From Melittangium boletus DSM 14713 (GTDB lineage Bacteria; Myxococcota; Myxococcia; Myxococcales; Myxococcaceae): DNA of 64,000 nt. The notes beneath the pieces were generated by a model. The model did no database searches, was not told where the DNA came from, and saw nothing but the letters and a program-made list of their open reading frames with translations. A program made the translations under genes and the position numbers. The DNA lies in contig NZ_CP022163.1 in NCBI RefSeq assembly GCF_002305855.1, forward strand, positions 6,939,765 through 7,003,764, read 5' to 3'. Positions 6,756-11,822 of the stretch are shown here, piece after piece; the stretch's first letter is position 1; the number at the start of each line of letters is the position of its first letter.

Positions 6756-7153
6756 GCCCAGACGGAGCTCATGGACCGTGCGGTGCGCATGTCCCAGGCC
6801 TCCACCGGCCGGCCGCTTTGCGCCACCAATGTAGAAGGGAAACGCCGACTGCCTCTAACAAGGCGCATAAGATATGCTTCATGTGGACGCATTCGACCAA
6901 TAGTTCAGGCCACCGCGAAGCTTGGTGCGATGGTGTCTGGCCCCATGCAGCCGACTGACCCGGCTGACGGTGTCGGGGCATTGCCCTGGGATGGTACTGC
7001 GCGCGTACGTGAAGCCGTCGTTATGAAAGATTCAAATAAGCACTTGCCGCATTACTTCTCAGGTGGCTTGTTCTTCGCTTGGCCCCCTGATAAACATGAC
7101 TTTGGAGGTCATGTAAACTGGACTTGGCTGTAGGTTACGCTGGCAGACCAAAA

Positions 7154-7159
7154 GGGAGG
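7154..7159 (+). promoter_or_regulatory. Shine-Dalgarno (GGGAGG) for first gene of island operon
   Basis: aaaGGGAGGacacATG, 4 nt upstream of the ATG at 7164. Confidence 0.4.
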
Positions 7160-7163
7160 ACAC

Positions 7164-7997: not shown

Positions 7998-9095
7998 ATG
8001 AAACTACCGGCAGTGGACGATTTGATTGGGAAGCAATGGACCGTCTATGATTCCGCACCCGACAAGCCGTTGTTTGTCGCAGGCCCGCCTGGCTCAGGTA
8101 AAACAAGTCTTGCAGTACTTCGGGCGCAGTTTTTGTCTGGTCCCGAATTCAATCAAACGGTCGTACTCGTCACTAAAAATCGGATGCTTGCGGCGTTAGC
8201 AAAGGAACTCGGGAGTGCCCAATTCGACACTGTCACCATGAATAGCCTTGTTGCTGGCGACTACAGAAGGCGATTTAACGAGAATGTGCCAGGGTTCAGC
8301 TCATTTTTATATGAGTGGGAAGCCATACTGGACGACTACGCCAGCCTAAATGTCGAACCGCTGTTTGACCATATGGTGATTGACGAAGGCCAAAACCTGC
8401 CAATAGGTTTTTACTCCTGGGCGAGCAAATATGGAGCTAGGGTGTTGACTGTTTTTGCTGACGAGGATCAAGCCACGCATCCCGAGCGGTCGTCTTTGAG
8501 CGACATTGCCAACGCGACGGGCCTATCCGATCCGGTCAGACTTACCGACAATCACCGAAACACACCCGAAATCGCAGCCGTTGCAGAGCATTTTCACGTG
8601 TCTCAAATCCTCCCTCCCGCAGTAGTGCAGCGGCCAGCGGGTGGTGAAACGCCTAGATTAATCAGGATAAATTCGATTGACGATTTACCCAAGCGCGTTG
8701 CGACGCGTTACGCCAATCGAGGCGAGTCAATCGGAGTAATTGTATTTCGGAAACAGGATGCACACCAGATGCATTCGCGCCTAAATAAGCTATTGCCAAC
8801 TGAGCGCGTAGACGTATATACAAGCGAAGCTAACAAGGGCGTTGAAAGTTCAATACGTCTGTTGGAACAAGGTGTAACCATTCTTACTGGTGAAGCTGTT
8901 ATCGGTCTTGAGTTTGGTGTTGTTTATCTTCTTGACCTGCGTAGATCGCTTCCTTGCCGGAGTACTGGCGACCAACGTAGACTGTACATGCTCTGCGCAC
9001 GCGCACGCGATGCACTTTTTTTGATAGACTATCCAGCATACCTAGGCCATGAGCAGCTCGCGGCACTACCTTCTCCCCCGGTGTTGATTCGCTAA
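7998..9095 (+). CDS. compact SF1 (UvrD/PcrA-like) helicase/ATPase, 365 aa
   Basis: Walker A FVAGPPGSGKTSLAV (motif I); motif II HMVIDEGQNLP; motif IV-like TDNHRNTPEIAAV (cf. UvrD qNYRS...I); motif VI-like VIGLEFGVVYLLD...RLYMLCARARDALFL (cf. kGLEf..V...r.lYVa.TRA). The stop TAA overlaps the ATG of the next gene (TAATG at 9093-9097). Confidence 0.6.
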   Translation: MKLPAVDDLIGKQWTVYDSAPDKPLFVAGPPGSGKTSLAVLRAQFLSGPEFNQTVVLVTKNRMLAALAKELGSAQFDTVTMNSLVAGDYRRRFNENVPGFSSFLYEWEAILDDYASLNVEPLFDHMVIDEGQNLPIGFYSWASKYGARVLTVFADEDQATHPERSSLSDIANATGLSDPVRLTDNHRNTPEIAAVAEHFHVSQILPPAVVQRPAGGETPRLIRINSIDDLPKRVATRYANRGESIGVIVFRKQDAHQMHSRLNKLLPTERVDVYTSEANKGVESSIRLLEQGVTILTGEAVIGLEFGVVYLLDLRRSLPCRSTGDQRRLYMLCARARDALFLIDYPAYLGHEQLAALPSPPVLIR

Positions 9096-11305
9096 TGCCT
9101 AATTCGAACAAACAAATCGACCTGGCTATCACGATTCCTCAGAACGGCATGGGCACAAACACAACAACGCACAATCACCAAGTTAAGCTCGCCTTGACGC
9201 TAGACCACCGAGAGTGGCTCGGTTTTCTAGCGGACGAGTGGTGGCCGCTGAATTCCCCTGACAAATCCAGCCGGCTGGGCGTTGGTACGCCCAGAGATAT
9301 TGCGGTGTCCGAGGATAAAATTACCGTGGTTGCCTGGATTGATTCAGCTCGGCTACCGCAAGTAGAGGTGTTGTCTTGGCGAGCCAATCAATGGCTCCGC
9401 GTGTCGCTCGCAGATGTGGGCGAAATCGACGAAGAAGTTGTCTGGCCAGGGCCGCTGCCATTATTTGCGGTATCATCTTTTTCTGTGGTGAATCAACTCG
9501 ACAAGGCTAGGTTACTTGCAATGTCGAGAGGATTTTCGAATATCTCCGCGCCCACTCAGCCTATTCATGTTGAGCGATACAGTCTGAAAGTATCGACCGC
9601 ACAGCAGCCGCCAGACCAAAAAGACCAGACCGCTTTTACACCAAGCCAAGACTGGAATTCAGATCGTGGCGCAGCAGCAATGGCTGTTTGGGCTGTGCCT
9701 GCGGTCGCGCCCTGGCTTGATGTACTTTGCGAATCACTTGATCTATCCACAGAAGGATTCACGGCGAATCGACTGGGAGCTGCATGGTGGAGCGAGCCAC
9801 CATGGCGCTCAAGGCCTAGCAATGGTCGCGACGTGGATGCGCATAACATCACTTTTTGGCGCGCTACTGTCGATGTTCTAAGGGCAGTTCGCATGCGCGA
9901 AGCATGGCGTCCTCTTCAAGTTCTTGATGAAATTCGGGAACGCGCGCTGTCAAATGGCATCACCCGTTCGTCATTGGAGGAATTGGTATCCGAGACGCGG
10001 GAGCTTCTTAATGATGAGCGCACAGTACGTCTCGATCAGCGGCACTTCGGTGCTCTTGGGGCAGCACTTCAGTTAGTACTTTTGCGTCCAACTCCGGAAC
10101 GCTTTATTACATGGACACACGAACTTCGTGCACTTCCCCCAGTTATTTGGTGGACCGGCGCAATGCTGTCTGGTCTTGTTCAAGGATACCGAGACCTTGA
10201 ACCACGCTTTCGCGGAATGACAGAGGGTCGTTCGCTTTTGGCAATTCGTACATTGCAACTTTCGAACATAGAAACTGCGCGCATTGGTTGGCCGGGAGCG
10301 TCAACCGCAAAGCCAAAGTGGAGCCGTGAAGCAGGAAAAGTACGGCTCTATTGGGACGACAAAAACTGGGCCGAAAGATCCGAGAACAGCCGTGGCCGGT
10401 GGTTTGCGGCAAACCTCGAACAGCCCGACATCAGACGAGCTGCGATTGATGTGGCTCAGCATTTTTCACCAACTTGCCTGCGTCAAAGACTGCGCCTCAA
10501 GGACCAGCAACTAGCTATTCTGGGAGCAGGTGTGGTTCAGGTAGAAACAAAAGGGGCGCCGCTTCTCGTCATAAATGGGGCAATTGAACTGAATCTTCCA
10601 GTAGAAGCATCAATTACCACCGAAATCGATGATGATTCTTTTCGCCAGTGGCTTATTCATGAGGGCATCGTTGAGCGCTTGCCAGAACCTCCTCTTGTGG
10701 GTTCCACTCGTAAATTAGATGCAGGGCATCGTGATACAGTCCCAGGCCTTGTGTTTGTTCCAGACTTCATATCGGCAATAGAAGAAAGGGAAATTCTGGC
10801 CACAATCGATGCTGCTCCATGGCGTGACGACATGAAGCGCCGAGTTCAGCACTATGGATGGGCTTATAACTACAAAGCAAAGAAAGTGGAGCCCAAAGAC
10901 CGCCTAGGTCCTCTTCCTGAGTGGGCCGAGCAAATTGGTGCGCGATTAGTAGAAAAAGGATTTGTCGAAGAGTTGCCTGATCAAGTTATTGTTAACGAGT
11001 ATGTCGTAGGTCAAGGCATTTCAAAACATGTGGATTGCCCCTCCTGCTTTCGCGGCGCTATTGTGACCATTAGCTTGAGTGAATCATGGGAAATGTTCTT
11101 TTGGAGCCCTGAAGGTCGAAAAACTGTCCTTACACTAGATAGGCGTAGTGCGACAATTATTGGAGGGGACGCACGGGAAAAATGGAAACACGAGATCCCT
11201 AAACGCCTGAACGAGCCTTGGGGCCCTCGGGGTCGGCGAGTCTCACTAACGTTTCGCAAAGTTGATATCCACAGCCATAAAGCAAGGCATCCATCTTCTC
11301 GCTAG
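9095..11305 (+). CDS. 736-aa fusion protein: unknown ~550-aa N-terminal region + C-terminal AlkB-like Fe(II)/2-oxoglutarate dioxygenase domain
   Basis: The C-terminal ~190 aa read ...VFVPDFISAIEEREILATIDAAPWRDD...VQHYGWAYNY...VNEYVVGQGISKHVDCPSCFRGAIVTISL...REKWKHEIPKR...RGRRVSLTFRKV. These carry the AlkB signatures H-x-D (HVD), a distal His (KHEIP) and the 2OG-binding R-x-S-x-T-F-R (cf. E. coli AlkB RINLTFR). The N-terminal region is Trp-rich (WWPLNSP, WWSEPPWRSRP, IWWTG) and has no motif I recognise. Confidence 0.6.
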   Translation: MPNSNKQIDLAITIPQNGMGTNTTTHNHQVKLALTLDHREWLGFLADEWWPLNSPDKSSRLGVGTPRDIAVSEDKITVVAWIDSARLPQVEVLSWRANQWLRVSLADVGEIDEEVVWPGPLPLFAVSSFSVVNQLDKARLLAMSRGFSNISAPTQPIHVERYSLKVSTAQQPPDQKDQTAFTPSQDWNSDRGAAAMAVWAVPAVAPWLDVLCESLDLSTEGFTANRLGAAWWSEPPWRSRPSNGRDVDAHNITFWRATVDVLRAVRMREAWRPLQVLDEIRERALSNGITRSSLEELVSETRELLNDERTVRLDQRHFGALGAALQLVLLRPTPERFITWTHELRALPPVIWWTGAMLSGLVQGYRDLEPRFRGMTEGRSLLAIRTLQLSNIETARIGWPGASTAKPKWSREAGKVRLYWDDKNWAERSENSRGRWFAANLEQPDIRRAAIDVAQHFSPTCLRQRLRLKDQQLAILGAGVVQVETKGAPLLVINGAIELNLPVEASITTEIDDDSFRQWLIHEGIVERLPEPPLVGSTRKLDAGHRDTVPGLVFVPDFISAIEEREILATIDAAPWRDDMKRRVQHYGWAYNYKAKKVEPKDRLGPLPEWAEQIGARLVEKGFVEELPDQVIVNEYVVGQGISKHVDCPSCFRGAIVTISLSESWEMFFWSPEGRKTVLTLDRRSATIIGGDAREKWKHEIPKRLNEPWGPRGRRVSLTFRKVDIHSHKARHPSSR

Positions 11306-11822
11306 GTGTCATCCGCCAAGCTACAGAATAAAGAAGATTGAGTGATCGCGGTAGGGACGGCCCTTCGCCCCAGGACTCGGGCCGCCCCCCGCACAGATCC
11401 CAGCGGGCGCTGCTAGCGCACTGGGCTCTTGCCTCGGATGTTGACGTCAAGGCCGTACTGCTCCTCGACGTAGGCGGCAGGGCGCACTGGACACGCATTG
11501 TCCGGCGCTGTGTCCGGGGCGTGTTTTGCCCTCCCTCCTTCTCCCTGGCCAGACTCCTTCCCTCCACCACCTCCGCGGCCCTACTACTGGCTTTGTTCGG
11601 CGGCTTCGTCGGTACTACGAGTCTGTCTGACTTCCTCTGCCCGTTCATCATCGGCGTACGGCCACTGGCCTTCCCGATACGTCCCGCCCTACTTCCGGCG
11701 GGCGGACAGCGGATCTCCCGGTTCTCGCGCATGGAGTGTCCGTGCATGCGAGGGGTCTACGACCGCGCAGGACCGTCCCTGAACTCGCCTTGTCGTTCGT
11801 GGACATGTGGCCTTCCGCCTCG

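Follow-up and report, generated by a model that had tools for sequence, protein, structure and literature searches.

The question raised by a locus of Melittangium boletus DSM 14713 is what a compact, compositionally foreign group of three genes does for the cells that carry it. We analyzed a 64,000-nucleotide stretch of this genome (the window; contig NZ_CP022163.1, positions 6,939,765 to 7,003,764), in which three open reading frames (ORFs) on the plus strand, here called A, B and C, occupy a stretch of low guanine-cytosine (GC) content. A, B and C constitute one self-contained, horizontally moving operon present in at least nine bacterial phyla. They encode, respectively, a class-I S-adenosylmethionine (SAM) methyltransferase, a candidate helicase of superfamily 1 (SF1) and a four-domain protein with an AlkB-type Fe(II)/2-oxoglutarate (2OG) dioxygenase at its C-terminal end. 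On this evidence the trio is an undescribed system in which known folds occur in a new combination, with membership of established groups at the level of enzyme superfamilies only. Our proposals on function draw on sequence, predicted structure and gene context.

The extent of the element is apparent from base composition. The GC fraction of the window is 0.66–0.74 up to position ~6800, 0.48–0.54 at ~6900–11300 and 0.62–0.65 afterwards, which delimits a foreign cassette of ~0.51 GC at 6840–11340 in a genome of 0.71 GC; the operon has a GC fraction of 0.509, compared with 0.710 for bases 1–6800. Gene A (7164–7985, plus strand, 273 residues) is preceded by a Shine-Dalgarno sequence, GGGAGG (7154–7159, plus strand), that ends 4 nt 5′ of its ATG at 7164. 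The TAA of A (7983–7985) is separated by 12 nt from the ATG of gene B (7998–9095, plus strand, 365 residues), and the TAA of B (9093–9095) shares one base with the ATG (9095–9097) of gene C (9095–11305, plus strand, 736 residues), forming TAATG. An earlier note on this DNA, made from the letters alone, had described a low-GC island spanning three same-strand genes with a strong Shine-Dalgarno sequence and packed junctions, and had quoted motifs for a methyltransferase, a helicase and an AlkB dioxygenase; the island and its junctions are borne out, the three domain calls hold, and the quoted motifs are present and invariant across the respective families. The overlap of the B stop with the C start suggests synthesis of the two proteins in a fixed ratio and their action as a complex.

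Homologues of C were sought by profile in a one-genome-per-species collection of 185,579 genomes, at most 337 of which contain a match. The best 80 of up to 337 matching places were taken as loci, and A and B were sought in their six-frame ORFs using the window proteins; locus ORFs were called mechanically, and some start codons are over-extended. Among these 80 loci with C, A is present in 74 and B in 78, and the gene order is A-B-C in 67, B-C-A in five and B-A-C in one. An exact 4-nt overlap of B and C occurs in 39 of the 67 A-B-C loci, the remainder being mostly over-extended ORF calls. The hosts, which represent at least nine phyla, belong to Myxococcota, Beta-, Gamma- and Alphaproteobacteria, Acidobacteriota, Gemmatimonadota, Planctomycetota, Nitrospirota, Chloroflexota, Bdellovibrionota and Entotheonella, and come mostly from soil, rhizosphere and sponge. 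When the flanking ORFs of the loci were clustered, no fourth conserved gene emerged. Synteny of the trio across phyla rules out chance adjacency. The earlier note had conceded that its proposal would fall if the genes were not syntenic elsewhere; instead, a conserved operon recurs in 67 or more loci across phyla.

In several loci C has outlasted its partners. It is intact, with A or B deleted, truncated or frameshifted, in five loci (L016, L020, L063, L077 and L080), and three others (L065, L072 and L073) likewise combine an intact C with an A or B that is absent, truncated or split; some split or frameshifted genes in long-read metagenome-assembled genomes (MAGs) may be sequencing errors. L020 instead has an SF1 paralogue of more distant kinship, 2.4 kb upstream. 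Two divergent copies of the trio coexist on chromosome OZ253469.1 (L040 and L061) and in one MAG (L015 and L079). Among further variants, the C homologues P0011 (969 residues) and P0014 (987 residues) carry an extension of ~250 residues beyond the AlkB domain without a Pfam match, B and C form a single ORF in L054 (8813–12157), and the database protein P0171 joins A to a fragment of B; all of these may be either real fusions or errors of assembly or gene calling.

The composition and surroundings of the loci are those of an accessory element. The GC content of the operon lies below that of its flanks by a median of 5.5 points, being at least 3 points lower in 53 of the 67 loci and at least 3 points higher in none. 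The flanks are variable and the immediate neighbours heterogeneous, and insertion sequence (IS) elements abut the copies of Melittangium and Corallococcus (IS630 in the latter). Five loci of Gemmatimonadota type (L027, L028, L042, L059 and L064) share the B-C-A order and have syntenic flanks, and in three of them (L027, L028 and L064) the operon is 8–17 GC points below its surroundings. None of 50,697 phage genomes, 72,556 plasmids and 2.9 million IMG/VR contigs contains the full trio, and the searches there retrieved only AlkB-only relatives and three cyanobacterial pairs of a methyltransferase and an AlkB, considered below.

Protein A has no match in Pfam (E ≤ 1), NCBIfam or PHROGs, and its family comprises at least 626 clusters at 90% identity, none of them with Pfam annotation. 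Compared with the PDB, the family profile retrieved class-I SAM methyltransferases only (Tmt1, 2e-5; METTL17, 4.5e-4), and Trm9 was not among them. The closest fold is that of Rsm22/METTL17, and the fold neighbours include cap-N7 methyltransferases. Motif I reads D102-x-G104-x-G106-P107, of which D102, G104 and G106 are invariant, as is the acidic residue D130; a helical N-terminus specific to the family carries the invariant residues G49, Q50, F53, D54, Y69, H77 and E80. DNA amino-methyltransferases have (D/N/S)PP(Y/F) as their strand-4 motif. In A, direct reading of the sequence gives SYLLAS at this position. A thus belongs to the class-I SAM methyltransferases, with putative SAM binding and catalysis. 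The class-I SAM fold was the point on which the earlier note had staked its "writer", and with D102, G104, G106 and D130 in place it stands, whereas a DNA methylase of restriction–modification (R-M) type does not, the fold being the RNA-associated one of Rsm22/METTL17.

Protein B has the sequence of an SF1 ATPase of UvrD/Rep/HelD type and is a candidate helicase, with all motifs contained in two RecA-like domains (a minimal 1A+2A motor core). Its invariant motifs are GPPGSGKT, D129-E130-x-Q132, N185-H186-R187, G303-x-E305-F306, Y330 and R335. The B profile aligns to both motor halves of Bacillus subtilis HelD (2.7e-24) and to UvrD (5e-12), with weaker matches to the C-terminal part of GajB and to the N-terminus of the helicase of Schlafen 5 and 11. 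The sole Pfam match above cut-off is Viral_helicase1, an SF1 helicase family of RNA viruses. At 365 residues there is no room for accessory domains, and B is a bare motor core. Orthology to HelD or HelR was rejected, as B lies far under the NCBIfam cut-offs (28.6 bits against 750, and 25.3 bits against 419) and the domains that define these motors are missing from it.

The C-terminal part of protein C (residues 545–725; 10727–11269, plus strand) is an AlkB Fe(II)/2OG dioxygenase with intact HxD...H and RxSxTxR motifs. It scores 57.4 bits against PF13532 (2OG-FeII_Oxy_2; cut-off 31.2), and H645, D647, H699, R715 and R721, the last two within R715-x-S-x-T-x-R721, are conserved at 97–100% in 80 C sequences. 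The E-values rank human ALKBH8 (2.2e-24), the nearest relative of solved structure, above NMAD-1 (2e-9), ALKBH6 (5e-8) and Escherichia coli AlkB (0.045), and the alignment to ALKBH8 covers the region of the nucleotide-recognition lid. The domain is 41–44% identical to stand-alone AlkBs, among them the pTB4 protein of Roseobacter denitrificans (43%), a member of the ALKBH8-like group 2A (van den Born et al. 2009, PMC2790896). As ALKBH8 is the closest match, we place the oxygenase of C in bacterial group 2A. Two other assignments were rejected: a repair equivalog of E. coli AlkB type, for which NCBIfam gives 18.5 bits against 267 and 13 against 231, and ALKBH8 proper, since an RNA recognition motif (RRM), a zinc finger and Methyltransf_11 were undetected in C or A and A is not Trm9-like. 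The AlkB "eraser" of the earlier note is consequently upheld as a dioxygenase fold and not as a repair enzyme of the E. coli type (ALKBH8 at 2e-24 against 0.045), and erasure is one of two readings. The other follows from ALKBH8 itself, which hydroxylates a methyl-esterified tRNA base, mcm5U34. ALKBH6 was reported in 2025 to remove N7-methylguanine (PMC12494543); together with the cap guanine-N7 methyltransferases among the fold neighbours of A, this would make a pair writing and erasing N7-methylguanine a candidate chemistry.

The remaining 545 residues of C have no sequence match, and Pfam matches to DarT and to PF03747 are likewise absent. Structure prediction, based on an alignment of the truncated Melittangium C sequence to full-length proteins from databases, gives three domains with high confidence (pLDDT 89.6, pTM 0.88). 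Foldseek independently places DarT first (probability 1.0), followed by ADP-ribosylglycohydrolases (ARHs). The fold search of this region suggested by the earlier note thus yields a DarT-like fold, an ARH-like fold and an unmatched domain. The first (residues 30–175; 9182–9619, plus strand) has the predicted fold of a DarT/Tpt1-like ADP-ribosyltransferase; in 80 sequences, none of its acidic positions reaches 90% conservation, so that an invariant catalytic acidic residue is missing, and only R39 is conserved. The second (residues 178–396; 9626–10282, plus strand) is all-helical and ARH-like, with E343 as the sole well-conserved acidic residue and with R331, R373 and many tryptophans invariant. 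The two-metal acidic set is not conserved, and all characterised ARHs require metal ions in a binuclear centre (PMC7050489). An alpha/beta domain without a sequence or fold match follows (residues 408–522; 10316–10660, plus strand). Given the absence of canonical catalytic residues, the DarT-like and ARH-like domains are probably pseudo-enzymes that bind a ligand. C is accordingly assigned neither to DarT of DarTG systems, whose fold is predicted and whose residues and antitoxin partner are absent, nor to the ARH/DraG family, in view of the missing PF03747 match and the non-conserved metal-centre residues; an Arr-like antibiotic ADP-ribosyltransferase was rejected because it does not occur among the fold matches.

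The DarT-like and ARH-like domains form a new domain pair without a Pfam family. A word-indexed search for the module joined to other enzymes returned AlkB fusions only. The module is rare: an exhaustive search covering 1.84 billion representative proteins found it in only 177 clusters. Among the matches listed of at least 650 residues, AlkB is present in all except two giant proteins. One of these (P0266; L091, 6487–10128) joins the module to DUF4326 and NADAR and adjoins a YAcAr protein and a Toprim primase; the other (P0278; L092, 6557–12448) joins it to YAcAr and lies among genes of a conjugative element (a TraG/VirD4-type coupling protein and integrases). The module has the same degenerate signature in both. 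NADAR, DUF4326 and YAcAr are all conflict domains with a link to ADP-ribose, as are SLOG-type domains (PMC9503650).

A second type of operon preserves part of the trio. On the Picosynechococcus plasmids pAQ5 and pAQ6 and on one plasmid of strain PCC 7003, a stand-alone ALKBH8-like AlkB gene is immediately preceded by a true homologue of A (hhalign probability 99.2%, E 6e-20); in PCC 7002 the pairs are at 5025–6549 of L082 (pAQ6) and 5037–6561 of L084 (pAQ5). These are the only A-like genes in the 72,556 plasmids (three plasmids), and each adjoins such an AlkB. The pair is preceded by an AAA_33 kinase-WYL-WCX protein, which after comparison was rejected as a relative of B or of the N-terminus of C, and it lies in defence islands, in the company of type III CRISPR genes and of genes for a reverse transcriptase, an Abi protein and the restriction endonuclease BPTD_3080. 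The occurrence of an A-type methyltransferase with an ALKBH8-like AlkB in two operon types marks these two enzymes as the functional core, with an NTPase partner that varies.

We then considered the relation of the trio to defence. A search of A, B and C against PADLOC-DB v2.0.0 gave no system match: A has one partial match to a candidate methyltransferase (8.7e-10, residues 65–163), B has weak P-loop-level matches to mad8, DRT-associated helicases and GajB, and C has zero hits. The literature search returned no description of an A-B-C system, and an earlier mention cannot be fully excluded. The statement of the earlier note that the trio corresponds to no known defence system accordingly agrees with both searches. 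Applied to the immediate neighbours of the loci, PADLOC recognised ~11–13 defence genes among 135, a raw count without a background; these comprise two PglX of BREX, three type I methylases and one each of Ppl, PDC-S36, AbiEi, RmrA, a type II methylase and a phospholipase effector. In Paraburkholderia the locus is a clear defence island, where VapBC precedes the trio and an SbcCD-like pair, then a HerA-like ATPase and Mrr, follow it.

Taken together, these observations lead us to favour, tentatively and at somewhat less than even weight, the explanation that the trio is a nucleic-acid base-modification module that acts in genetic conflict by oxidative methyl removal with a toxin–antidote logic, rather than in housekeeping. 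Methyl removal agrees with an accessory distribution, with the loci in defence islands, with domains of conflict type and with a C that survives where A is lost. In the proposed mechanism, B would use ATP to expose single-stranded nucleic acid, A would methylate a base on the nucleic acid so exposed, and the oxygenase of C would oxidise the same methyl group, the likeliest outcome being its removal from the cell's own nucleic acid. The degenerate DarT/ARH-like pair would serve in substrate binding or in the sensing of a ligand, such as single-stranded DNA (ssDNA), RNA or ADP-ribose. Methylation would be the weapon and the oxygenase its built-in antidote, as in the logic of DarT and DarG with a different chemistry, and the conflict would be directed at invaders or at base-modifying toxins. 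An intact C that outlasts A or B has the look expected of an antidote outliving its toxin. As for the target, RNA is suggested by the fold of the methyltransferase, by the AlkB subtype and by the Viral_helicase1 match of B, and ssDNA by the DarT fold and the motor of UvrD/HelD type. We consider it unlikely that the trio represents, in a more specific form, a new conflict class in which a dedicated Rsm22-like methyltransferase, by methylating bases, poisons single-stranded nucleic acid that belongs either to an invader or to the infected cell itself, and in which a helicase-coupled ALKBH8-like oxygenase, whose catalytically dead DarT/ARH scaffold recognises the substrate, is the resident antidote.

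Several observations weigh against the proposed conflict module. The toxicity of A is a conjecture, and a nuclease or other classical effector is absent from the operon. ALKBH8 hydroxylates a modified base and does not erase it, which favours sequential modification. With ~11–13 of 135 immediate neighbours being defence genes, most are not, and housekeeping genes surround a Pseudoduganella locus and one metagenomic locus, with glyQS in one such context. The five Gemmatimonadota-type loci look vertically inherited, which is less typical of defence systems, and the DarT/ARH-like domains may have a hidden, non-canonical activity. The absence of the trio from the phage, plasmid and IMG/VR collections fits a cellular system and is silent on its role. 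A defence role, as raised in the earlier note, is therefore a possibility rather than a finding: some loci lie in defence islands, whereas there is no nuclease or effector, most neighbours are not defence genes and some contexts are housekeeping ones.

If C acts as ALKBH8 does, the operon could serve sequential RNA hypermodification in the manner of ALKBH8 or NSUN3/ALKBH1, in which A would methylate a tRNA or rRNA base, C would convert it to a stable hydroxylated or oxidised base and B would remodel the RNA. This would be an accessory adaptation, altering for example a tRNA or rRNA site hit by ribotoxins or antibiotics, with no toxin–antidote immunity. We regard it as possible, if on balance rather unlikely. 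The oxygenase of C is far nearer to ALKBH8 than to repair AlkBs, lid included; the 43% identical group 2A pTB4 protein has little DNA repair activity (negligible according to Zdzalik et al.), and these authors favoured an RNA substrate, concluding that bacterial ALKBH8-like proteins probably modify an unidentified RNA that resembles mcm5U (PMC4051686). The RNA-type fold of A, Viral_helicase1 as the only above-cut-off Pfam match of B, the housekeeping loci including that with glyQS and the apparent vertical inheritance in one lineage agree with such a role. It is harder to reconcile with the patchy spread (at most 337 of 185,579 species genomes, and the module in 177 clusters), the foreign GC content, the IS-flanked copies and the cases of defence-island context. 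Persistence of C without A in several loci would be unexpected if A acted first, A is not Trm9-like, RRM and zinc finger are absent, and both the DarT fold and the motor of UvrD/HelD type speak for ssDNA. A different division of labour, which we hold to be improbable, is a damage-reversal cassette in which B would unwind and C would take off alkyl or etheno adducts, and perhaps also those of ADP-ribose by means of its ARH/DarT-like part, the adducts arising from environmental alkylators or from the base-modifying toxins of competitors, with A separately protective or regulatory. The coupling of a helicase to an AlkB has a eukaryotic precedent in ASCC3 with ALKBH3, which counts in its favour, as do the survival of C alone in some loci, the mostly soil, rhizosphere and sponge hosts and the company that the N-terminal module keeps with the ADP-ribose-removing domains NADAR and DUF4326 in mobile-element proteins. 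Biochemically, all bacterial ALKBH8-like proteins tested display some repair in vitro, mainly of etheno adducts, with little or no repair of methyl lesions (PMC4051686, PMC2790896). However, an Agrobacterium mutant in an ALKBH8-like gene was sensitive neither to methyl methanesulfonate nor to chloroacetaldehyde (PMC4051686), the ARH-like domain is without the acidic two-metal residues that all characterised ARHs need (PMC7050489), and the near-obligate linkage of methyltransferase and AlkB in two operon types would be left unexplained.

Still less probable is a counter-defence or anti-restriction remnant of a degraded mobile element, whose methylase would shield incoming DNA and whose C would reverse host modifications. 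The occurrence of the N-terminal module in giant proteins of polyvalent type, one of them among conjugative-element genes, and the IS-rich variable region around the Melittangium copy could be accommodated by this view, whereas the absence of the trio from the phage, plasmid and IMG/VR collections, the chromosomal position of most of the 80 loci and the lack of adjoining conserved integrase, conjugation or phage genes speak against it. To the notion that three unrelated genes are adjacent, or that the assembly is at fault, we assign a negligible probability: order, strand and overlaps are kept in at least 67 loci, which derive from different phyla and different sequencing projects, and NCBI holds an identical C protein from Melittangium boletus.

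Comparison with characterised systems helps to define what is new. ALKBH8, a eukaryotic tRNA methyltransferase/hydroxylase and a close sequence relative of the oxygenase of C, resembles the trio in tying an oxygenase to a class-I SAM methyltransferase, but in the trio the methyltransferase is a separate gene, Rsm22/METTL17-like rather than Trm9-like, an RRM and a zinc finger were undetected, and the oxygenase, to which an SF1 motor is coupled, shares its chain with DarT-like and ARH-like domains. The operon also has a patchy, foreign-looking distribution and not a conserved one. DarTG, like the trio, holds a modifying and a de-modifying fold in one locus and is accessory and horizontally moving, and the logic proposed to be shared is reversible base modification of single-stranded nucleic acid. 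The DarT-like domain of C, however, lacks the invariant catalytic acidic residue, the de-modifying fold is ARH-like and degenerate, macrodomain and NADAR antitoxins are absent from the trio operon, and the intact active sites are those of methylation and Fe/2OG oxidation, not of ADP-ribosylation. Unlike toxin–immunity or writer–eraser pairs of an ADP-ribosyltransferase and an ARH (Tre1-Tri1, Lmo0066/67 and DraT-DraG), C has the two folds fused in one chain and joined to AlkB, and both are without canonical catalytic residues. B aligns to both RecA-like halves of HelD and to UvrD and keeps all SF1 motifs, and it lacks the N-terminal and clamp-opening domains of HelD and the 1B and 2B domains of UvrD.

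A parallel in composition is found in the replicases of flexiviruses and related plant RNA viruses, which like the trio contain a methyltransferase, an AlkB and an SF1 helicase in one expression unit; B passes the Viral_helicase1 cut-off, and the fold neighbours of A include cap-N7 methyltransferases. This is a resemblance only, as the viral parts lie in a polyprotein with an RNA polymerase and homology is at the superfamily level; viral AlkB domains are of the repair type (PMC2553587). R-M, BREX, DISARM and MADS systems similarly combine a methyltransferase with an NTPase or helicase in an accessory operon, whereas the trio has no nuclease, PglZ, phospholipase D or effector and its methyltransferase is not of the DNA amino type. 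An R-M/BREX-type reading was rejected on these grounds, nuclease and PglZ being absent and the methyltransferase being without DNA-type features.

Around the cassette, the window has the appearance described in the earlier note, with a ppk remnant and IS debris to the left and IS701 to the right. On the left, a polyphosphate kinase remnant truncated 5′ of the cassette retains only its C-terminal PP_kinase_C domain (6189–6755, plus strand). On the right, a group II intron remnant (11340–13500, minus strand) is split by an IS701-type element, whose DDE_5 transposase (11937–13187, plus strand) is followed by five more transposase ORFs, the six forming an array at 11.9–19.7 kb. In this nested insertion the intron is recognised as Rfam RF02005 (102 bits) at 13348–13500, with a remnant at 11768–11843; the N-terminus of its reverse transcriptase ORF runs from 11747 to ~11340 on the minus strand, and the intron is truncated exactly at the edge of the low-GC cassette. 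No direct repeats, target-site duplication or att sites were found flanking the cassette, and there is no tRNA gene in the 64-kb window. Promoter, terminator and Rfam scans of the cassette gave nothing above chance apart from the neighbouring intron. The stretch 12000–54000 is moderately GC-poor (0.60–0.70, against 0.71–0.75 outside), which places the cassette at the edge of a larger variable region. This region also contains a second DDE_5 transposase (35729–37078, minus strand), a GTP cyclohydrolase II-phosphoribosyltransferase fusion (28853–30304), a HAMP histidine kinase and an S15 peptidase; of its scanned ORFs, none was recognised as a defence gene. An ORF of 2370 residues occupies 56853–63965 (minus strand) in the high-GC right flank.

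The physiological substrate of group 2A AlkBs has been unassigned since they were described in 2009–2014 (PMC2790896, PMC4051686), and the operon provides the first genomic context for bacterial ALKBH8-like enzymes. Together with the cyanobacterial pair, it indicates that a group 2A AlkB travels with a dedicated methyltransferase from an unclassified family, which is probably the maker of its substrate. The DarT/ARH-like pair, shared with giant proteins carrying NADAR, DUF4326 and YAcAr, points to an unexplored branch of the conflict toolkit built around NAD and ADP-ribose. If the conflict module that we tentatively favour is real, this would be the first system with an AlkB-type oxygenase as a core component, and methylation would be the second chemistry, after ADP-ribosylation, of a reversible base-modification weapon. 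If C is indeed the antidote, the trio would reveal the first physiological role of a bacterial ALKBH8-like AlkB, and would establish AlkB as a component of immunity or as an antitoxin.

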